Virus record (IMG/VR): IMGVR_UViG_2660238346_000030
Length of the DNA: 34,158 bases
DNA from: a virus
Lineage: Duplodnaviria; Heunggongvirae; Uroviricota; Caudoviricetes
Strand: one strand, 5' to 3'
Below are positions 22,172-34,158 of this stretch, piece after piece (the first letter of the stretch is position 1; each line of letters opens with the position of its first letter). Under the pieces are notes generated by a model that was not told where the DNA came from, searched no databases, and saw only the letters and a list, made by a program, of their open reading frames with translations. The translations under genes were made by a program, and so were the position numbers.

Positions 22172-23938
22172 ATGAACACCACACTGACACCCGCAGATCT
22201 CGATCCCCGTCGGCAGGCCATGCTGCTGTACTTTCAGGGATACCGCGTAGCCCGCATTGCTGAAATGCTGGGCGAGAAAGTTGCAACCGTTCACAGCTGG
22301 AAAAAACGCGACAAGTGGGGTGACTATGGGCCGCTGGATCAGATGCAGCTCACCACCGCCGCACGCTACTGCCAGCTCATTATGAAGGAGCACAAAGAAG
22401 GGAAAGATTTCAAAGAAATTGACCTGCTGGCGCGCCAGTCGGAACGCCACGCGCGGATCGGCAAGTTTAACAATGGCGGCAACGAAGCCGACTTAAACCC
22501 TAACGTCGCCAACCGTAACAAAGGCCCGCGCCGTCAGCCGGAAAAGAATGTTTTCACCGATGAACAAATTGAGAAGCTGGAAGAAATTTTCCATTCCTCC
22601 ATGTTTAACTACCAGCGCCACTGGTGGGAAGCCGGAAAAACCAACCGCATCCGCAACCTGCTAAAGTCACGCCAGATCGGCGCGACCTTCTATTTTGCCC
22701 GTGAGGCCCTGATTGACGCCCTGCTTACCGGACGTAACCAGATTTTCCTTTCTGCCAGTAAGGCACAGGCTCACGTCTTTAAGCAGTACATCATCGATTT
22801 CGCCAATGAAGTCGAGGTGGAGCTGAAAGGTGATCCGATGGTGCTTCCTAACGGGGCCACGCTTTACTTCCTCGGCACCAATGCCCGCACGGCCCAGAGT
22901 TACCACGGCAACCTGTATCTGGATGAATATTTCTGGATACCGAAATTCCAGGAGCTGCGCAAAGTGGCTTCCGGTATGGCTATTCACAAAAAATGGCGAC
23001 AGACCTATTTTTCCACGCCATCCAGCCTGACACACAGTGCTTATCCGTTCTGGTCCGGTGCGCTGTTCAACCGAGGGCGCAACAAAGCCGATAAGGTGGA
23101 CATCGACCTGTCCCACAGCAATCTGGCCCCCGGCCTGCTGTGCGCAGACGGGCAGTACCGCCAGATAGTCACTGTGGAAGATGCGGTGCGCGGCGGATGT
23201 AACCTGTTCGACCTTGACCAGTTGCGCATGGAGTACAGCCCGGACGAATACCAGAATCTGCTGATGTGTGAGTTCGTGGACGATCTCGCGTCCGTATTCC
23301 CGCTCAGCGAGCTGCAGGCGTGCATGGTAGACAGCTGGGAAGTCTGGACCGACTTTCATGCACTGGCGCTGCGCCCGTTTGGCTGGCGCGAAGTGTGGAT
23401 CGGTTATGACCCGGCAAAAGGTACGCAGAACGGCGACAGCGCCGGATGCGTGGTGGTGGCACCGCCAGCCGTGCCAGGTGGTAAGTTCCGCATTCTTGAG
23501 CGTCACCAGTGGCGCGGAATGGACTTCCGCGCCCAGGCTGATGCCATTAAAAAACTGACGCAGCAGTACAACGTGACATATATCGGCATCGACTCGACCG
23601 GCGTTGGTCACGGTGTCTACGAGAACGTGAAAGCGTTCTTTCCTGCGGTGCGGGAGTTTGTCTACAACCCCAACGTCAAAAACGCACTGGTGCTCAAGGC
23701 ATACGACATTATCAGCCACCGCCGTCTGGAGTTTGACGCCGGGCACACCGACATTGCGCAATCCTTTATGGCTATCCGTCGCGCCACTACAGCCAGCGGC
23801 AACCGCCCTACCTATGAAGCCAGCCGCAGCGAAGAAGCCAGCCACGCAGATTTGGCCTGGGCAACGATGCACGCACTGTTTAACGAACCGCTGCAGGGCG
23901 AAGCCGCCAATACCAGCAACATTGTGGAGATTTTCTGA
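22172..23938 (+). CDS. P: Terminase large subunit (ATPase-nuclease) gpP
   Basis: 588 aa; ATPase core (KSRQIGATF, LYLDEY) and C-terminal nuclease-like region; divergent from O as in P2. Confidence 0.9.
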   Translation: MNTTLTPADLDPRRQAMLLYFQGYRVARIAEMLGEKVATVHSWKKRDKWGDYGPLDQMQLTTAARYCQLIMKEHKEGKDFKEIDLLARQSERHARIGKFNNGGNEADLNPNVANRNKGPRRQPEKNVFTDEQIEKLEEIFHSSMFNYQRHWWEAGKTNRIRNLLKSRQIGATFYFAREALIDALLTGRNQIFLSASKAQAHVFKQYIIDFANEVEVELKGDPMVLPNGATLYFLGTNARTAQSYHGNLYLDEYFWIPKFQELRKVASGMAIHKKWRQTYFSTPSSLTHSAYPFWSGALFNRGRNKADKVDIDLSHSNLAPGLLCADGQYRQIVTVEDAVRGGCNLFDLDQLRMEYSPDEYQNLLMCEFVDDLASVFPLSELQACMVDSWEVWTDFHALALRPFGWREVWIGYDPAKGTQNGDSAGCVVVAPPAVPGGKFRILERHQWRGMDFRAQADAIKKLTQQYNVTYIGIDSTGVGHGVYENVKAFFPAVREFVYNPNVKNALVLKAYDIISHRRLEFDAGHTDIAQSFMAIRRATTASGNRPTYEASRSEEASHADLAWATMHALFNEPLQGEAANTSNIVEIF

Positions 23939-24663
23939 TGCACTCAACCCCAACTAACCTCATGACCACCGCCAGCCTGCCTGTAGATCGCCCTTTCTTT
24001 GCTTACCAGCATGAATGGAACAGTGGCGCACGCAGCAGAAACCGCGTGCTTACAAAAATGCGTCAGGCTGGCGCGGATTTCTTTTTCGCCTACGAAGCCC
24101 TGAACGATGCACTGCACACCGGACGCAACCAGATTTTTCTGGGCTGCACCCCGGCATCAGCCCTGACCGTCAAAACCTATATATCAGCTTTTTTAAGTGA
24201 GGCAGCAGCCTGGACGCATCTTGGGAAAATAAAATCAGGTAAAGCGCATCTGGAACTCCCAAACGGTGCGGTCATTTATTTTATCGGGCCGGAAAGTCTC
24301 GCCGCCGCGCTCCATGGAAACGTCTACGTGTCAGAGTATGCCTGGGCTGACTCCCCCAAAAATATGATTGCGCTCGCCAAAAGCCTGTCCATGCACGCGC
24401 GCTATCACGCTACCTACTACACCACCCCAAGCCCCAGCCCGGAAGCATGGCAGGAATACAAGAATCTGATCGCCCGCAACAGCACTACCTGCATGACCTT
24501 TACCGCTGATGACGCTGCAGCATCCGGGGCTACGCTCGCAACCGGAGCCGCGCTCTTTGATGATGAATGGCTGAATGACATGAAAAAAGAATTATCACCG
24601 GAGGACTGGAAAATGCTGTTTATGTGCGAATGGCCCCAGGCTGACAAGGAGCAGGCGGCATGA
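23938..24663 (+). CDS. Truncated paralog of the terminase large-subunit ATPase core, translationally coupled between P and Q
   Basis: 241 aa; aligns with the P ATPase core by eye (KMRQAGADFFFAYEALNDALHTGRNQIFL vs KSRQIGATFYFAREALIDALLTGRNQIFL; HGNVYVSEYAW vs HGNLYLDEYFW; LFMCEW vs LLMCEF); start overlaps P stop, stop overlaps Q start. Confidence 0.7.
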   Translation: MHSTPTNLMTTASLPVDRPFFAYQHEWNSGARSRNRVLTKMRQAGADFFFAYEALNDALHTGRNQIFLGCTPASALTVKTYISAFLSEAAAWTHLGKIKSGKAHLELPNGAVIYFIGPESLAAALHGNVYVSEYAWADSPKNMIALAKSLSMHARYHATYYTTPSPSPEAWQEYKNLIARNSTTCMTFTADDAAASGATLATGAALFDDEWLNDMKKELSPEDWKMLFMCEWPQADKEQAA

Positions 24664-25715
24664 GCAAACGTAAAAACAAGAACAACCGCGCAGCGGTGGA
24701 TCACAACGCAGAATCTGGCGGCGCTGCGGCAGAGGCGTTTAGCTTTGGCGACCCGGTGCCGGTGTTAGACCGACGCGAATTGCTGGACTACGTGGAATGC
24801 GTGCAGATGGACCGCTGGTATGAGCCGCCGGTGAGCTTTGACGGACTGGCGCGGACCTATCGCGCCGCCGTGCATCACAGCTCACCGATTGCCGTTAAGC
24901 GTGACATTCTCAGCAGTACCTACATCCCGCACCGCCTGCTCAGCCAGCAGGCTTTTGCCCGTTTCGTACAGGACTATCTGGTGTTCGGTAACGCCTATCT
25001 GGAAAAGCGCACCAACCGGCTCGGCGGCGTTCTCTCACTGGAGCCAGCACTGGCGAAGTACACACGCCGTGGCGTGGACCTCGACACCTACTGGTTTGTG
25101 CAGTATGGCCTGACCACGCAGCCCTATGAATTTACGCAGGGCAACATCTTTCATCTGCTGGAGCCGGATATTAACCAGGAGATTTACGGGCTGCCCGGCT
25201 ATCTCTCCGCCATCCCGTCAACCCTGCTCAACGAGTCCGCAACGCTGTTCCGCCGGAAGTATTACATCAACGGCAGCCATGCGGGTTTCATCATGTACAT
25301 GACCGACGCAGCACAGAATCAGGAGGACGTGAACAATATCCGCCAGGCAATGAAAAGCGCCAAAGGGCCGGGCAACTTCCGTAACCTGTTTATGTACTCA
25401 CCCAACGGTAAAAAGGACGGCATCCAGATCATCCCGTTATCGGAGGTTGCGGCAAAGGATGAGTTTCTGAACATCAAGAACGTGAGCCGCGATGACATGA
25501 TGGCAGCGCACCGCGTACCGCCGCAGATGATGGGCATTATTCCCAACAATACCGGCGGCTTTGGTGATGTGGAAAAGGCCAGCCGCGTCTTTGTCCGCAA
25601 CGAGCTGATGCCGCTGCAGAAGCGACTGCAGGAGCTTAACGACTGGCTTGGAGAAGAAGTGATCCGCTTTGAGCCGTACACGCTGGGACTGACAGAAGAC
25701 AAGCGCAACGACTGA
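24660..25715 (+). CDS. Q: Portal protein gpQ
   Basis: 351 aa, last gene of the packaging operon next to the putative cos region. Confidence 0.88.
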   Translation: MSKRKNKNNRAAVDHNAESGGAAAEAFSFGDPVPVLDRRELLDYVECVQMDRWYEPPVSFDGLARTYRAAVHHSSPIAVKRDILSSTYIPHRLLSQQAFARFVQDYLVFGNAYLEKRTNRLGGVLSLEPALAKYTRRGVDLDTYWFVQYGLTTQPYEFTQGNIFHLLEPDINQEIYGLPGYLSAIPSTLLNESATLFRRKYYINGSHAGFIMYMTDAAQNQEDVNNIRQAMKSAKGPGNFRNLFMYSPNGKKDGIQIIPLSEVAAKDEFLNIKNVSRDDMMAAHRVPPQMMGIIPNNTGGFGDVEKASRVFVRNELMPLQKRLQELNDWLGEEVIRFEPYTLGLTEDKRND

Positions 25716-26096: not shown

Positions 26097-26330
26097 TTAA
26101 TGCAGCCAGCTGTCGTCTTCCCACACCTTCTGCATAATTTTCATCACTTGTTTTCTTTCTTCGTCCAGTTGCAGTCCGGTTAGTTCCACACCGTTAGAGC
26201 TACCTTTGCGAATGCGAATTACCGTTTTGGGATACAGGGGGCGCAGATTGCGGTAAAGCTCGGATTCAAGGGCGTCCAGGGTAGACTGGCTAATCTTCTG
26301 CTCTTTATCGATCATTATTTCAATGCGCAT
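26097..26330 (-). CDS. DinI-family protein
   Basis: 78 aa from ATG 26330 with GAGGTGA RBS (ORF track extends to 26402); similar by eye to E. coli DinI (MRIEIMIDK...LDALESEL...KIMQKVWEDDSW); operon preceded by a LexA box. Confidence 0.8.
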   Translation of the reverse strand: MRIEIMIDKEQKISQSTLDALESELYRNLRPLYPKTVIRIRKGSSNGVELTGLQLDEERKQVMKIMQKVWEDDSWLH

Positions 26331-26340
26331 AAAAGTCACC

Positions 26341-26529
26341 TCAGCTGATGACATCCATTGAGCGGTTGTATTCGTGGGTTCTGATTTTTGCCATGAGTTC
26401 ATCAGTCAATTCAGAAACCCACTGCAGAGCCAGCCCCTTCTCTTCATCACTACACTCACTAGCCGCTACAAGCTTAAGAAAAAAATCAATGCGCTGGAGC
26501 TTCAAAGACTCCAAAAAATAGTCCTGCAT
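26341..26529 (-). CDS. Small SOS-inducible protein, candidate antirepressor (Tum/GfoA-like by position)
   Basis: 62 aa from ATG 26529 with AGGAGG RBS (ORF track extends to 26631); first gene of the LexA-boxed operon, 10 nt upstream of the dinI-like gene. Confidence 0.5.
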   Translation of the reverse strand: MQDYFLESLKLQRIDFFLKLVAASECSDEEKGLALQWVSELTDELMAKIRTHEYNRSMDVIS

Positions 26530-26570
26530 CTTTCCTCCTATGACACCACACGCAATACTATATGTATAAC

Positions 26571-26590
26571 CACTGTTTATATTTACAGTA
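26571..26590 (-). promoter_or_regulatory. LexA box (SOS operator) overlapping the promoter of the small-ORF/dinI-like operon
   Basis: CACTGTTTATATTTACAGTA, i.e. CTGT-N8-ACAG with AT-rich spacer, 40-60 bp upstream of the start codon at 26529. Confidence 0.78.
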
Positions 26591-26682
26591 TATAATAATC
26601 TTACTGATGTAAAACGTTTTTTTACGTTCATCAGCCTGATATGCCTGGTATTATTAATAGCACGAATTGTTAACCCGCGTAA

Positions 26683-29097
26683 TTAATACAGGTTCCGCCA
26701 CTGATCATCTTCCTGCAAACGCTGGTTCCGATAGAAGATACGCAGGCCTGCTCCTGACGGAATACTGCCGCCGCGAAGGAGCAAATTGACCTCTTTCTCG
26801 CTGCCATCAAATCCTCTGGACTTCAGTTCATAGACGAGCTGCTGACGCTGATACTCTGTAATTCGCTGTTTGTAGTCTTTACGCCGTTTCGGTTTAACCA
26901 GGCGTAATCTTGCTGCCAGTTCCCGGCGCTCTTTTTTGCTCATACTGTGCAGGTAATCGTGCAACTCCTTGTCATCCATGCGGGTGATATCCGTTCTGGT
27001 ATCCCCATCAGCTGATTTGTCTTTCCCTTGTTGGTTCAAATTTTCAGCAAGGGGACAGTTATTGCCACGAGTCCAAGGGGCGCAAGCGCCCTGGTCGGCT
27101 GCCGCCTCCTGAACGTCAACGGCCTTACGAACCATTTTCCACTTCACTGCATGAGTGCAGATCTTACCCTCTGCAATGGGTGACCAGATGCCATAAATAC
27201 GAATGCCGTGATCGCCATAGGCGGTCGGCTCTTCGTTGATTTCATAAGCGGTTCTGATGAGGTGATATTTACGGGGAACCAGTACGCCGCCCTGCTTCAT
27301 GATGTAGGTGGCAAAACAACCAGCATCAGCTGCAGCCAGAATGGCATCAAGGCGCGGGTTATCCAGTACCGGCGCACCTGCTTTTTTGTCACCCTGTTGC
27401 CTTGCCGCCTGACCAGCCAGCAATCGCAGTTCACGGTAAGCCTGACGCCCCGGAATGCCAAAGAAGCGGAATTGCTGAACACGATGCAGAGACGCCCAGG
27501 CATTAACGTATTCAGCGTTATCACGCAGAGATTTACCCGTTTCCTTGCTGATCTCGCCAGCCAGACCACGCCCGTCAATGTTCTTACTGATGTATTTCGC
27601 GATGTAGCTAGTCGGCGTTCCTTTGCGCGGGTTTATCAGCTCAGACTTAAAGCGTGGCCCCGTGTTATTACCCAGCTCCTCGCGGTCTTCACGGATAGCA
27701 AACTTACGCAACAATGCAGTAATGGCGCGGCGGTCTTTTTTGCGCATGAAACACAACAGGTGCCAGTGAACTGTGCCGTCATGATGCGGCTCAGCCACCC
27801 GCACGCCATACCAGCGCAATCCGGCTTTGTGCATCGCCTTACGAAATGCAGCAAACATGCCGACCAGATAATCACTGCTTTGTCTTACCGTCGCATTTGT
27901 CCAGGTCGGGTTGGGCCTGCCGTTATTTAGCGTGGAATGGAAACGTGACGGACAGGTGATGGTGTAGAAAACGGCGCAGTCACCGCGCATTTCCGCGATA
28001 AGCTCCAGACCTTTAACACAGGCCATCATCTCATTGCGGCGATGCGCAGGGTTGCTGCTGCTGGCGTTTACCACATCCTCCATGTCCAGCGTGTCGCCGT
28101 CTTCGTTCACCAGTTCATGAGAACGGAAAAACTCCAGCGACTTACGGCGCTGCTCACGTTTATGCATCACGGCTTCATAGCTGACATAGGGAGATGCTTT
28201 TTTGCTGACCAGGCAAACAGCACGCAACTGCTCTTCCCGCCATTCACAACGCATCTTCCACAATTTCCGATACCACCAGTCGGCGCACAACATACGCGCC
28301 AGCGAACCCGGAATGAGTTCATAGGGTACGGGTTTACGGCGGTTTCTTTTCCGGCGGAGTTGCTCAAACGCAGGCGGTATGACATCCAGTCGCAGGGTTT
28401 CTGCTGCCACCTTTTCCCATGTCTTGCGGATTTCTTCTGGCTTAACATCATCGGTGGCATACAAATCACCACAAGCGGCATCAAGACACATACTCATATG
28501 CGCAGCGACAAGAGTAGACAGGCGTTTCACCTGATCCTGACTCATTTCAGGCAAGATCAGCAGGCCGTCCAGCCCTTCATGGCTTGCCATAAAGCGAAAA
28601 GAAGTGGATAGCTGACTGTCGCGTACATGCTCCAGTCGTTCCAGACATGGCTTAATCGTCTCACGCAAATAGCGGGAATAAGCCTTTGGCCTGCCCAGGC
28701 TGCTGAAGTATTCAATACGTTGCATCAGCGGCTTGCTGATATGGGAAGGCTGGGCGTTAACGTCCGCCAGTATGACCATGTCCGGATTAAAACGCTGCTG
28801 CTCATGCGCCAGCTTTGCCCGGCTAATGAGCTTATCCTGCTCCATTTCGCGCTGGACAGGATCACGGGATGCATTAAAGAAATAACGCTCCCAGACCTGA
28901 TCACTCAGTGCCTCGCGGCGCAGTTGTTCCTGCTCGTTATCGGCAGCGTACAGAGTGATCAGGTTTGAAAGCGCAGAAACCGGCGCAACTTCCGCCGGGT
29001 CCAGATAAGGGTTAATAGCCTTTTTCGGGCTGTTCCATGAGAATGCTGCGGCGGCCTCGTTAAAGCCGCTGCAGTTGTTCATATCAGCATGGCTCAT
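26683..29097 (-). CDS. A: Replication initiation endonuclease gpA (rolling-circle initiator)
   Basis: 804 aa, last and largest gene of the early operon, P2/186 A-like. Confidence 0.88.
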
Positions 29098-31238: not shown

Positions 31239-31748
31239 TCACAGCAAACCGAATGAAGCACCGAGGCCAGTCACGGTATCAACTGCACTCGCCATCGCAG
31301 GGTTAGCCTGTAAACGGGCCTGCAATGAAACAGCAGCCAACGCCATCAGTCGTGTTACAGAGTTAATGCTGCTGATAGCATCACGACGACCTGCACTGGT
31401 TTTTACATCGCCAGATACCGCACCTGCAGCAACACGCCCGATCTCTGCGGTTGCACTCATGACGTAATGTGGCAGTTTCTCTTTTGCCACCTCATTAATT
31501 GGTACGCATGGCAGGCAGTGAATCTGTGCCAGAAAACCATCTACCAACGTTGAATCTTCAGTCAGATCGGTAAGCAGCCAGATTTCTGGTGCGGTTAATA
31601 AATGAGGTTGAGCTGGGTTCAGCTTGTTCCGCAGAATCTGCACATTCATGCCCGCACGTTCTGCCAGTTGCACCAGATTGTGGCGCAGTGCGAATGCACG
31701 ACAGGCTTCATCAAAATGTGGATGTTTGGAAACTTGGTAATCAAACAT
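31239..31748 (-). CDS. cII: 186-type CII transcriptional activator of lysogeny establishment
   Basis: 169 aa from ATG 31748 (ORF track starts at TTG 31757); closely resembles 186 CII as I recall it; second gene of the lytic operon. Confidence 0.78.
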
Positions 31749-31812
31749 GGTTTTCAACTCCGAACTTATCGCAAAATCGAACTCAGCGTCTTATTGCGAA
31801 AATAGACGTCTA

Positions 31813-32016
31813 TTAAGCAGACAAAGCATCAACAGTCAGAGCAGCCAGGTTAATCATTACCTTTTCACGTTTTTTGTCTTTACGAAGACGATGACGAGGT
31901 AGTCGGCCATCAGCCAACATGTCGTTAATCGTATCAATAGAAAGGCCAGTCAGTTCGCTATAACGTTCGATTGTGACATGTGGTGTATTCAGAGTAATTG
32001 AAATGTTAGGTGTCAT
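31813..32016 (-). CDS. Apl/Cox-like excisionase and early-promoter repressor (small HTH protein)
   Basis: 67 aa with HTH ([24 protein letters not shown]); first gene of the early lytic operon, divergent from cI. Confidence 0.65.
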
Positions 32017-32161
32017 AAGGCAACATTCCTTCTAGATATGGCTTGTGGCGAGCCGTTGTTTGTCGTGATTAGTAGTGAAGGCTCCAAAAGAACACTTCTG
32101 GTTCAACTTTAAGATCGCTTTTGGAATCTGTCAACGAATTTTGGATTTCTTTGGAGGACTT

Positions 32162-32731
32162 GTGGATTTCAATAGCGGCGGTAAGAAAGCCATAGAACGT
32201 TTAGTTGAAGCATATGGGTTCGGTACCCGTCAGGCTCTCTGTGATCATTTAGGTGTTTCTAAGAGCACCATGGCAACGCGCTATATGCGTGATATTTTTC
32301 CAGCAGATTGGGTAATCCAGTGCGCCCTTGAAACGGGCACCTCGCTTAATTGGCTAACAACAGGGCATGGTTCAAAGCAAGCATCAGCAAATACAAATAC
32401 TATAGAAGTAGAAAAATATTTATTGTCTGATGGAGCATTGCAGAAAGACGGTTTTTATATTTTTGATAAGGGATTTCTACCCTCTGCGTTTAAAAAACCT
32501 TTTGTCATCACAGATAACAATTCTGAATTTATTTGTGATAAAGAATTTGATGATATACGTGATGGTAAATGGGTAATAAGTATTGATGGCGAAATAACGA
32601 TCCGTGACATTACTCGTTTACCCGGTGGAAGAATCTTCGTCGAGGGTGGAAACAGAGCCTTCGAATGCAAGATAGAAGACATTGAAATAATTGGTAAAAT
32701 TATAAGTTTAACAGTCAAGTATGTTAAATAG
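32162..32731 (+). CDS. cI: 186-type CI immunity repressor
   Basis: N-terminal HTH domain (LGVSKSTMATRYMRDIFPADWVIQCALETGTSLNWLTTGHG) plus C-terminal domain; start set at GTG 32162 preceded by GGAGG (ORF track starts at GTG 32075). Confidence 0.75.
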   Translation: MDFNSGGKKAIERLVEAYGFGTRQALCDHLGVSKSTMATRYMRDIFPADWVIQCALETGTSLNWLTTGHGSKQASANTNTIEVEKYLLSDGALQKDGFYIFDKGFLPSAFKKPFVITDNNSEFICDKEFDDIRDGKWVISIDGEITIRDITRLPGGRIFVEGGNRAFECKIEDIEIIGKIISLTVKYVK

Positions 32732-32746
32732 TACCGGGAGGAAACT

Positions 32747-32938
32747 ATGCTTGGTAAGGTATTTTTTGTGGTTTTGTCATGTTCTTTGTTATTAAACCCA
32801 CTAACTACCTATGCTAGAAATTATCCCTGCTCAGGGAAAAAGGGAGGTGTTTCTCACTGTACCTCAGATGGCAAATTCGTTTGCAATGATGGAACTATTA
32901 GTAAATCCAAAAAAATCTGTACTAAAAACTCACGATAA
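32747..32938 (+). CDS. Small secreted Cys-rich basic peptide, cotranscribed with cI and int (lysogeny-expressed moron candidate)
   Basis: 63 aa; GGGAGG RBS 6 nt upstream; Sec-type signal peptide [23 protein letters not shown] followed by a 40-aa Lys-rich mature part with four Cys. Confidence 0.55.
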
Positions 32939-33126
32939 CTTTTGCTTTTATATCTGCGTCTAAAATAAAAATGAGCCGCAGGTTAACCGCAAAAGTTACA
33001 TGCTCACATAGCAAAAAGAATAGCCAACTTCATTATGGCTTCAGTGAGATGTATGGTCGTAGGATTTCATACATTGACACTGGTTATACATACAGTAAAA
33101 ATGCTCTCTACTGGAGGGCATTTTTT

Positions 33127-34158
33127 ATGGCAGTACGAAAACTCACCACAGGGAAATGGCTTTGCGAATGTTACCCCGCCGGACGTAGTGGGCGTCGTGT
33201 GCGTAAACAATTCGCCACCAAAGGCGAAGCTCTGGCTTTTGAGCGCCACACGATGGAAGAAACCGAAGCAAAGCCCTGGCTGGGTGAATCAGTGGATCGT
33301 CGAACACTGAAAGACGTAGTTGAGCTATGGTTCAAACTACATGGTAAATCTCTAACCGCTGGGCAGCATGTCTATGACAAATTGCTGTTGATGGTTGACG
33401 CTCTGGGCAATCCCCTTGCAACCGATCTCACATCTAAAATGTTTGCCCACTATCGAGATAAACGCCTGACGGGTGAGATCTACTTCAGCGAGAAATGGAA
33501 AAAAGGAGCAAGCCCAGTCACTATTAACCTGGAGCAAAGCTATCTTAGTAGTGTTTTTAGCGAACTATCCCGCCTGGGCGAATGGTCGTATCCGAACCCA
33601 CTGGAGAACATGCGAAAATTCACCATCGCAGAAAAAGAGATGGCATGGCTTACCCATGAACAGATTGTTGAATTGCTGGCTGATTGTAAACGTCAGGACC
33701 CAATTCTGGCACTGGTAGTTAAGATATGCTTAAGCACTGGCGCACGCTGGCGTGAAGCCGTAAATCTTACCCGCTCACAGGTGACCAAATACCGAATTAC
33801 CTTTGTAAGAACGAAGGGGAAGAAAAACAGAAGCATCCCTATCAGTAAAGAGCTTTACGAAGAGATCATGGCGCTTGATGGGTTCAATTTCTTCACAGAC
33901 TGCTATTTTCAATTTTTATCCGTGATGGAAAAAACGTCTATCGTGCTCCCTCGCGGTCAACTGACACACGTTCTGCGCCATACGTTTGCGGCGCATTTTA
34001 TGATGTCGGGTGGAAATATCCTTGCTTTGCAAAAAATCCTCGGACATCACGACATAAAAATGACTATGCGTTACGCACATCTGGCACCGGATCACCTGGA
34101 AACTGCATTACGGTTTAATCCGCTGGCAACACTACCAACATCAATAGCAAGTTTTTGA
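33127..34158 (+). CDS. int: Tyrosine integrase (P2/186 Int family)
   Basis: Start at ATG 33127 with GGAGGG RBS (ORF track extends to 32971); C-terminal catalytic motifs (TGARWREA, HVLRHTFA, MRYAHL with catalytic Tyr); stop codon is the last 3 nt of the window. Confidence 0.9.
   Translation: MAVRKLTTGKWLCECYPAGRSGRRVRKQFATKGEALAFERHTMEETEAKPWLGESVDRRTLKDVVELWFKLHGKSLTAGQHVYDKLLLMVDALGNPLATDLTSKMFAHYRDKRLTGEIYFSEKWKKGASPVTINLEQSYLSSVFSELSRLGEWSYPNPLENMRKFTIAEKEMAWLTHEQIVELLADCKRQDPILALVVKICLSTGARWREAVNLTRSQVTKYRITFVRTKGKKNRSIPISKELYEEIMALDGFNFFTDCYFQFLSVMEKTSIVLPRGQLTHVLRHTFAAHFMMSGGNILALQKILGHHDIKMTMRYAHLAPDHLETALRFNPLATLPTSIASF

Follow-up and report, generated by a model that had tools for sequence, protein, structure and literature searches.

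A phage-borne YdcA-family gene between cI and int of a P2/186-like prophage encodes a predicted exported four-cysteine mini-protein

In phage 186, the repressor gene cI and the integrase gene int overlap by one base with nothing between them, and the annotated operon runs from pL (and the CII-activated pE) through cI, int and orf69 to a terminator. Phage P2 carries accessory and defence cargo such as old, tin and fun(Z), and the term moron, for an accessory gene unit, is used here in the sense of Hendrix and colleagues. Other phages exclude superinfecting phage at the envelope by small exported or membrane proteins that act on the incoming phage, among them the lipoproteins Cor and Llp, P22 SieA, and T4 Imm and Sp. 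In this study we analyzed a stretch of 34,158 nucleotides (IMG/VR virus record IMGVR_UViG_2660238346_000030; hereafter the window), which is an almost complete P2/186-like (Peduoviridae) prophage. In this prophage cI and int are separated by 395 bp, and a gene of 63 amino acids lies between them. The gene belongs, with near certainty, to the YdcA family (PF27300/NF007463/PHROG 6000), which has been described as "poorly characterized" (PMC13541209). The best overall explanation of its product, which we put forward tentatively, is an exported, disulfide-locked, cationic binding module that is made in the lysogen and resides at the periplasmic or outer-membrane face.

The gene and the parts of its product are as follows.

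32747-32938, plus strand: YdcA-family gene, 63 amino acids, ATG at 32747 and TAA at 32936-32938, identical to RefSeq WP_000900883.1 (NF007463, PHROG 6000).
32736-32741, plus strand: Shine-Dalgarno sequence GGGAGG, 5 nt before the ATG, read from the sequence.
32747-32815, plus strand: predicted Sec-type signal peptide, residues 1-23, with a predicted signal peptidase I cut after T-Y-A (hydrophobicity, -3/-1 rule and family pattern).
32816-32935, plus strand: mature domain of 40 amino acids with four invariant cysteines (family alignments, AlphaFold2 models; top Foldseek match Dis2).

The cI stop codon (32729-32731) is followed by a 15-nt gap to the ATG of the ydcA-family gene, and 188 nt separate its stop codon from the int ATG at 33127. 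An earlier note on this DNA, made from the letters alone, had placed a 63-residue open reading frame (ORF) with a GGGAGG ribosome-binding site on this strand, 15 nt past cI and about 190 nt before int, and all of these elements are present in the sequence.

The family assignment was based on several profile matches. The ORF scored 115.8 bits against NF007463 (PRK10040.1-2; curated cut-off 93, E 5.3e-34) over the whole profile, and matched PHROG 6000 at 1.9e-34 over profile positions 1-56 of 56. All invariant columns of the family motif P-C-S-G-x-K-G-G...C...F-x-C-x-D-G-x-x-S-x-S...C, including the four cysteines, are present in the protein. The cluster representative and almost all homologues carry an entry for Pfam PF27300, named "YdcA"; our local Pfam copy, which is older than PF27300, gave the ORF no significant match. 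In identical prophages (loci L002 and L011) the annotation pipeline PGAP calls the identical protein at the identical position "YdcA family protein", WP_000900883.1. The gene is thus already known as an annotated member of a known family. The ORF fails NF007462, the equivalog model of the chromosomal YdcA (68.5 bits against a cut-off of 118), and the prophage protein is therefore a member of a paralogous, phage-borne sister subfamily. Two further matches, to an lpg1681-family NCBIfam model (E 0.11) and to Pfam GULLO2 (E 0.075), were dismissed as noise, and an Rfam search of 31700-34158 returned nothing at E of 1 or below. The earlier note had held that the product resembles no P2 core protein and looks like a moron. 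The gene is indeed cargo, but it is not an orphan. The homology and structure search of the mature peptide that the note proposed yielded the family models above and Dis2 as the top structural match.

The exact protein sequence was found on at least 1000 contigs, in E. coli, Salmonella Typhi and Klebsiella. An exhaustive profile search over 1.84 billion representatives returned only 459 clusters at E of 1e-3 or below, most of them single-domain proteins of 55-100 amino acids. In Moraxella phage Mcat26 (L006:3433-3624) the homologue looks split, a signal-peptide-like start (MNKFLSVLSVFATC...) and the mature domain being in different frames. The annotated coding sequence is only 37 amino acids there, and a frameshift, a sequencing error or a pseudogene is possible. 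The literature searched yielded no paper that deals with what the phage-borne gene does; most matches to "ydcA" concerned other genes that share the name without being related (a Bacillus rhomboid, a plasmid methylase and a gonococcal-island gene).

It is worth noting that a frame of this kind could in principle be a chance ORF or a decaying, functionless remnant. The DNA is AT-rich here, and chance alone produces ORFs of this size; the length of 63 amino acids alone is not significant because many spurious ORFs of such size, several of them overlapping, appear in the window list. This interpretation can be regarded as already refuted. The family E-values are about 1e-34, and phages of Moraxella, Acinetobacter and Haemophilus have mature domains with about 75% identity to this one. 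Compared with the allele of BL21(DE3), the gene shows 11 synonymous differences and 1 non-synonymous difference, giving a ratio of non-synonymous to synonymous divergence (pN/pS) of 0.03. Against the five appreciably diverged alleles (pS of at least 0.07), pN/pS was 0.00-0.09, while that of cI was about 0.2 against most of the same alleles. The near-identical RM10809-3 allele shows one synonymous and two non-synonymous differences, which are too few to interpret. The frame is intact in all seven E. coli alleles, six of which keep 63 amino acids; the seventh, the JA0072 allele beside a KAP nucleoside triphosphatase (NTPase), has 60 amino acids and an altered tail. The 63-codon frame is also intact in 80 of 80 near-identical IMG/VR copies, which represent three protein alleles, so that all 87 related copies looked at are intact. 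Absence or disruption of the ORF in close relatives, which the earlier note had named as the sign of a chance frame, was thus not found. Selection on the gene is strongly purifying, and the family matches and the substitution pattern are decisive for a real gene.

Of 5426 complete E. coli genomes, about 588, among them BL21(DE3), carry the cassette made of the C-terminal part of cI, the ydcA-family gene and int, at DNA identities down to 93%. The BL21(DE3) copy (L009, NC_012971.2 871842-875740) lies in a degraded prophage, in which cII and the replication endonuclease gene are partial pseudogenes and cI, ydcA and int are intact.

The protein starts with MLGK, a positive n-region, which is followed by a hydrophobic core (9-residue Kyte-Doolittle maximum 2.7) and by the end NPLTTYA, after which the sequence continues with RNYPCSG. 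In an alignment of 46 family members, Ala occupies position -1 in 44, and A, S, T or V occupies position -3 in 45. The leader sequence itself is unconserved across these members, and strong conservation begins about four residues before the first cysteine. A variable leader with a conserved cleavage-site character is the signature expected of a cleaved Sec signal peptide. The export call was made by rule-based sequence analysis (hydrophobicity and the -3/-1 rule) together with the family pattern, and on this basis the product is very likely periplasmic. A Sec leader cut after TYA had been proposed in the earlier note, and the features of the rule are found both in the protein of the window and across the family.

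We also considered a lipoprotein anchored through V-L-S-C12. The lipobox rule (PROSITE PS51257) places the cysteine at about residues 15-35 after an uncharged stretch. Here, the cysteine at residue 12 comes too early, a Lys stands within the preceding six positions, and the hydrophobic core runs on past the cysteine. Cys12 is moreover missing in other family members. The lipoprotein reading was therefore rejected.

The predicted mature peptide has 40 amino acids, a mass of 4.29 kDa, a pI of 9.7 and a net charge of about +6.8, with 7 Lys, 2 Arg and 4 Cys. The Lys-rich, four-cysteine character claimed before thus agrees with the computed values, and the four cysteines are invariant in the family. 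The invariant family positions are P, C, S, G, (K), G, G, C, F, C, (D), G, S, S, (K) and C. AlphaFold2 models with a mean predicted local distance difference test score of 77-78 showed a short helical turn and a small beta-hairpin.

A product that is small, cationic (+7) and disulfide-stabilised might be a secreted antimicrobial, bacteriocin-like or signalling peptide released by the lysogen, as had been suggested among the candidate roles. In Pseudomonas protegens, a YdcA-family gene located in a hydrogen cyanide cluster also shows an association, and only that, with antimicrobial-positive strains (PMC13541209). A Sec-type leader, however, leads only to the periplasm in a Gram-negative cell. 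No immunity gene, ABC exporter or double-glycine leader is found nearby, the flanking genes being cI and int only. The domain is also found in tandem repeats, at nuclease N-termini and in a type IV secretion system (T4SS) core complex, as would suit a structural or binding domain and not a toxin. Such a role is very improbable, and it is the least favoured of the roles put forward in the earlier note.

The only structural likeness of weight was to Dis2 of Legionella pneumophila. This protein was seen by cryo-electron microscopy near the outer membrane in the Dot/Icm core complex, a 13-fold T4SS assembly, and has two similar lobes with five disulfides (PMC8486379). The Dis2 papers describe the protein as not generally conserved outside Legionella and report no similar solved structure. 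A search of the family profile against PDB gave Dis2 (Lpg0823; PDB 7MUC and others) at E 1.5e-4. When the leaders were removed, Dis2 was still first, but its E-value rose to 2.5e-3, level with low-density lipoprotein (LDL)-receptor class A repeats. These repeats and the plant trypsin inhibitors that also appeared in the PDB profile searches were rejected as artefacts of cysteine composition, since Foldseek fails to recover them. Foldseek placed Dis2 first with both models, at a probability of 0.92-0.96 and 38-39% identity over 37-38 columns (template modelling score 0.59-0.63 with the 40-residue model), and every other match had a probability of 0.13 or below. An hhalign comparison with a Dis2 orthologue gave 85% probability, and that orthologue is tagged PF27300 in a precomputed table. 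These profile and model comparisons make it probable that the YdcA domain and one lobe of Dis2 are homologues. If so, the likeness gives experimental backing for the fold being exported, disulfide-bonded and close to the outer membrane.

One might suppose from this likeness, and from the UniRef cluster label "Conjugal transfer protein", that the prophage protein is an accessory subunit of a conjugative or type IV secretion machine. No T4SS genes, however, were found in the window or in the prophage loci looked at, and the protein has one domain against two lobes in Dis2. Dis2 itself is encoded apart from the dot/icm genes and is dispensable (PMC12716638). We consider this explanation extremely improbable, slightly more so than an antimicrobial peptide.

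The longer members of the family offer another view of the domain. In a Pfam scan of 20 of them, five have a leader and a YdcA domain that a linker joins to an extracytoplasmic nuclease, which is SNase in P0120, Endonuclease_NS in P0165, P0194 and P0195, and PLD/Nuc-like in P0183. Others carry two or three tandem YdcA domains (P0079, P0080 and P0082), some have low-complexity tails, and some have a second small, Cys-rich, basic module with a weak PBCV_basic_adap match. A basic mini-domain placed N-terminal to secreted nucleases would most simply be a binding module, for the substrate DNA or for the envelope.

The surroundings of the gene were then compared with those in related phages. The right end of the window is arranged like the switch of phage 186, with cII, an apl/cox-like gene, cI, the ydcA-family ORF and int.

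31239-31748, minus strand: cII activator gene (Phage_CP76 3.4e-42; the 169-residue form is annotated in L002).
31813-32016, minus strand: apl/cox-like excisionase-regulator gene, divergent from cI (PHROG 575, 1e-29).
32162-32731, plus strand: cI repressor gene of the 186 type, 189 amino acids from the GTG used by PGAP in identical prophages (Phage_CI_repr 2.5e-31, Phage_CI_C 3.6e-29; L002 annotation).
33127-34158, plus strand: tyrosine integrase gene of the P2/186 type, 343 amino acids (Int_N 3e-32, Phage_integrase 6.8e-22).

Since cI abuts int in phage 186, the ydcA-family gene is cargo. Prophages whose int is 94-96% identical hold other genes in the same slot. In Escherichia phage vB_EcoM-813R9 the slot is occupied by a 558-residue protein, which is PD-Lambda-1 (3e-120), and in Klebsiella phage 4LV2017 by a 349-residue protein to which no identity was assigned. 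Homology of the window with these prophages resumes at about 33049-33069, 60-80 nt ahead of the int start codon. YdcA-family genes also follow cI in prophages that have other cI alleles. Those of E. coli and Klebsiella show the order cI-YdcA-KAP NTPase-int, and the KAP protein matches PDC-S20 of PADLOC (2.4e-171). The order is cI-143 aa-YdcA-int in a Hafnia prophage and cI-YdcA-orf1-int in Haemophilus phage HP2, where the 60-codon YdcA gene is unannotated (L001:2920-3102; NC_003315, complement of about 2486-2668) and orf1 encodes a 254-residue protein with a signal-peptide-like start. The individual occurrences of PD-Lambda-1 or the KAP NTPase in the slot are L003:1791-3467, L014:3044-4375, L016:5198-6529 and L021:3698-5029, the KAP gene standing directly after the YdcA-family gene. 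Among P2-like prophages, 8% of the defence systems sit between integrase and primase (PMC13586616). The cI-int slot is a minor hotspot of defence and cargo genes, and the YdcA gene is its most constant tenant.

The earlier note had also regarded the gene as a moron in an AT-rich region. With respect to presence and absence at one junction, the evidence agrees with a moron: the junction is empty in 186, and the close relatives named above carry other genes there. The composition is deviant as well, the GC content of the ORF being 35.4% (29.7% at third codon positions) against 52.7% for the window. On the other hand, the gene has no promoter or terminator of its own. No promoter-like site was found in the 15-nt gap after cI, and no plus-strand terminator-like site directly after ydcA; the next terminator-like hairpin, at 33097-33126, is part of the int module. 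The low-GC tract is also wider than the ORF, taking in the C-terminal half of cI (32.9%) and the spacer (36.7%). With half of cI inside the tract, the ORF does not stand out by its composition as a separate insertion. The C-terminal part of cI, ydcA and about 110 nt downstream move together as one cassette. The region is thus AT-rich as claimed, without the ORF being set apart in it, and the name moron fits the gene as accessory cargo and not as a unit with its own signals.

Because the 15-nt gap holds no promoter, the gene is expected to be transcribed with cI. The following elements bear on its expression and on that of int.

31722-31748, no strand assigned: inverted repeat ATGTTTG-N13-CAAACAT, the same motif as the annotated phage 186 CII site at pE (186 annotation, motif search).
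33049-33074, no strand assigned: second CII-type inverted repeat, ATGTATG-N12-CATACAT, overlapping the -35 element upstream of int (motif search, relatives).
33074-33102, plus strand: promoter-like site TTGACA-17-AAAAAT upstream of int, -35 at 33074-33079, 10/12 matches, kept in relatives with other cargo.
33097-33126, plus strand: terminator-like hairpin with a U-run, which includes GGAGGG, the int Shine-Dalgarno sequence, and stops one base short of the int ATG (folding, relatives).
32936-32998, plus strand: stem-loop starting from the ydcA stop codon, without a U-run, a weak feature (-20.4 kcal/mol, z -4.8).

A search of the window for ATGTWTG-N10-14-CAWACAT gave exactly two matches, with 0 expected by chance. 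The first overlaps the start of cII as in 186, and presumably marks the establishment promoter pE reading into cI and ydcA. At the second, the half-sites change together, being ATGTTTG/CAAACAT in L021 and ATGTTTA/TAAACAT in L016. The promoter-like site next to it has to be read in the light of the fact that such sites in the region are no more numerous than in shuffled sequences. The int-upstream hairpin has a folding energy of -14.5 kcal/mol (z -5.4), and none of 200 shuffles was as stable. Its stem is kept by a double change, from GCCCUC/GAGGGC to GUCCUC/GAGGAC, between L021 and L016; this change was read straight from the sequences, as the MAFFT alignment mis-registered the right arm. In Hafnia, where int follows ydcA immediately, the hairpin is missing. 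Among alleles with 26% synonymous divergence in ydcA, the second half of the spacer hardly varies. The stem-loop at 32936-32998 was considered as a terminator of the cassette and rejected, since the allele differences break outer pairs and none is compensatory; little weight is given to it.

Taken together, the CII-type site, the promoter-like site and the hairpin suggest a CII-dependent int promoter embedded in a terminator, which would insulate int from the cI-ydcA transcript. Transcripts from pL or pE would carry cI and the cargo gene and would then terminate or have the int ribosome-binding site occluded, while the CII-dependent promoter, with a transcript starting inside the hairpin, would express int during establishment. 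In BTP5, a related 186-like prophage, repressor and integrase are transcribed at a low level in all conditions (PMC7067206). The earlier note had expected a single cI-peptide-int transcript in the lysogen. Its first part agrees with the common strand of cI and the gene and with the lack of room for a separate promoter, but a single transcript through int is doubtful in view of the conserved hairpin, the CII-type site and the promoter-like site. Judged from this arrangement, the ydcA-family gene is likely to be expressed in the lysogen, a claim of the note that the proposed insulation would strengthen.

On the basis of these features, the following sequence of events may be proposed. The gene, which has no promoter of its own, would be the second gene of the lysogenic operon, transcribed from pL in the lysogen and from the CII-activated pE at establishment, as its anatomy and the 186 operon suggest. 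It would be translated from its own strong Shine-Dalgarno sequence. The 23-residue leader would direct the product to Sec, signal peptidase I would cut after Ala23, and the four cysteines would form two disulfides in the periplasm, as expected from the sequence rules and the family. The result would be a strongly basic mini-domain of 4.3 kDa, locked by disulfides and akin to the lobes of Dis2, a point that homology supports in part. The fusions and the neighbourhood suggest that this mini-domain might serve outside the cytoplasm as a small binding module whose partner is polyanionic, be it DNA or the inner face of the outer membrane. We regard this binding mechanism as possible, with a little less confidence than the overall explanation. 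The lysogen would thereby gain a benefit at the envelope. We guess first that the product interferes with foreign DNA or phage arriving from outside, and second that it helps the cell to tolerate envelope or acid stress.

Three points put exclusion first: the gene lies in a defence hotspot, it is expected to be expressed together with the immunity repressor, and its domain is fused to nucleases elsewhere. The neighbourhood lends some support to superinfection exclusion at the envelope, which is possible. As the specific role, however, such interference with incoming DNA or phage is doubtful. Still more doubtful is a wider proposal, in which YdcA, as a periplasmic binder of nucleic acids or polyanions, would form a single-gene envelope barrier to phage, conjugation and transformation, carried in an insulated "lysogen-expressed cargo bay" of 186/HP2-type prophages.

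Several observations weigh against a binding module devoted to exclusion. The ORF matches no defence family of PADLOC-DB 2.0 at E of 0.01 or below. Deletion of dis2 has little effect on the Legionella T4SS (PMC12716638). The nuclease fusions could signify surface anchoring instead of DNA binding. The linkage to cI is not universal, as other phages hold the gene in a Mu-like early region, after the tape measure gene or in late operons. Finally, the distribution of the family on chromosomes and plasmids fits a general envelope role better than a dedicated anti-phage role. Chromosomal members lie in housekeeping surroundings, such as K-12 ydcA between rydC and hokB and P0052 between hom and cysS, and further members are found on Acinetobacter and rhizobial plasmids.

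These facts lead to another interpretation, that the gene is a host-fitness factor: an extra copy of a general periplasmic envelope or acid-stress protein, which does the job of the chromosomal YdcA and has no anti-phage role. Deletion of ydcA sensitises E. coli W to 300 mM 3-hydroxypropionate (PMC7642389), and the authors of that study cite an acid-induced, YdcI-dependent expression of ydcA. The wide occurrence of the family on chromosomes and plasmids outside phages points in the same direction, as does the retention of cI-ydcA-int in BL21(DE3) while cII and the replication gene are pseudogenes. The phenotype, however, is a single observation under one stress. The miss of the NF007462 cut-off sets the prophage protein in a separate subfamily, the gain from a second copy is unclear in a species that has ydcA already, and the slot is used by defence genes in relatives. 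We consider the host-fitness interpretation unlikely, though hardly more so than exclusion as the specific role, and we retain the exported binding module as the preferred explanation.

The variety of the surroundings is best seen in 40 diverse viral contexts, which came from a scan of viral contigs with the HP2 sequence; a first scan gave near-identical copies only. The neighbours include CI-like repressors, a Mu-like early region (RdgC, GemA), tape-measure, tail-chaperone and minor-tail genes and an AbiJ-like protein. A DUF4236 protein is a repeated neighbour in this set. In Acinetobacter-type phages (L007:3417-3934, L169:4001-4495 and L176:4001-4593) YdcA is followed by the DUF4236 protein, which has a hydrophobic C-terminal stretch in the L007 copy. 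YdcA and DUF4236 may form a two-gene unit in these phages.

The remainder of the window is described here for completeness. Escherichia phage 500465-1 matches the window at 96% over bases 3169-25000. Host DNA makes up the first 2.6 kb, with ybjM (minus strand) and ybjL, which encodes an Asp-Al_Ex/TrkA_C transporter, at 288-2620. attL must fall between about 2620 and 3140; attR is not in the window, which stops exactly at the int stop codon. In E. coli genomes that share the right end of the window, rcdA is the next host gene after int, and the element is a 186-like prophage integrated between ybjL and rcdA. An ORF of 241 amino acids with a Terminase_6N match (1.2e-14) lies at 23938-24663, between a 588-residue ORF (22172-23938) and the portal gene (24660-25715), and P2-type packaging modules do not usually contain such an extra terminase-like frame. 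Between the portal gene and the replication gene (26683-29097), the site of the classical P2 hotspot, only a DinI-like ORF (1.2e-22) and a 95-residue ORF are present, at 26097-26631; the latter has no Pfam match, and no recognisable defence system was found in that hotspot. On the minus strand at 32699-32727, TTAACA-17-TATAAT is a near-consensus sigma-70 promoter-like sequence with 11/12 matches, directed against the 3' end of cI in antisense orientation. The DNA is AT-rich here, and the match may be due to chance.

The gene deserves attention because about one in nine complete E. coli genomes carries it, tightly conserved, in an operon expected to be on in every lysogen. The leads are its position directly behind cI in P2-family phages of four genera, the use of the slot by defence genes, and the nuclease fusions together with the Dis2 lobes. 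In the literature searched, the linkage to cI across P2-family phages, the probable homology to a Dis2 lobe, the nuclease fusions and the arrangement of CII-type site, promoter and hairpin before int were not found, and we offer them as leads. If the reading of the int-upstream elements is true, the slot is a compartment that is expressed in every lysogen and insulated from int. Were the peptide to keep foreign DNA out at the envelope, prophages would be shown to encode a new and very small type of protection; were it no more than a stress protein, the gene would count among ordinary lysogenic-conversion genes.

Compared with the envelope exclusion proteins Cor, Llp, SieA, Imm and Sp, the protein differs in having no lipobox and no transmembrane segment after cleavage. 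The likeness would lie in a small exported protein made by the resident phage, and no relationship in sequence or fold turned up. Dis2 (Lpg0823; PDB 7MUC, 7MUD) is the only solved structure that resembles the model. Dis2 is exported and disulfide-rich, as the mini-domain of the prophage protein is predicted to be, and the two have in common the motif C-S-K-x-GG-x-x-x-C...VCN-x-G-x-x-S, but Dis2 has two lobes, five disulfides and a place in a T4SS assembly, whereas the prophage protein is a single lobe with four cysteines and two predicted disulfides.

With the moron and defence cargo of P2-like phages (old, tin, fun(Z), PD-Lambda-1 and PDC-S20), the gene shares a variable slot that is absent in 186, a deviant composition and a place on the lysogenic transcript. 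Its product, in contrast, is an exported mini-protein and not a cytoplasmic NTPase or nuclease, and the gene lacks the promoter of a classical moron.

The chromosomal YdcA of E. coli K-12 (b1419; NP_415936.1), the founder of PF27300 and PRK10040, is 57% identical (BLASTP 1e-19), and the mature domains align closely. Both proteins combine a Sec leader with a domain of about 35-40 amino acids, PCSG-KGG-x-SHC...KFVCNDG-x-S-x-SKK-x-C, with four cysteines. The K-12 gene is chromosomal, between rydC and hokB/sokB, whereas the copy in the window is phage cargo behind cI and has a leader unrelated in sequence. In HP2 the ATG of the gene overlaps the cI stop codon (ATGA), suggesting translational coupling, and the orf1 product (254 amino acids), predicted to be exported as well, is encoded between it and int. 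Like the gene in the window, however, the HP2 ORF lies directly after cI and before int in a P2-family phage, and it has the same architecture, with a mature domain that is about 74% identical.

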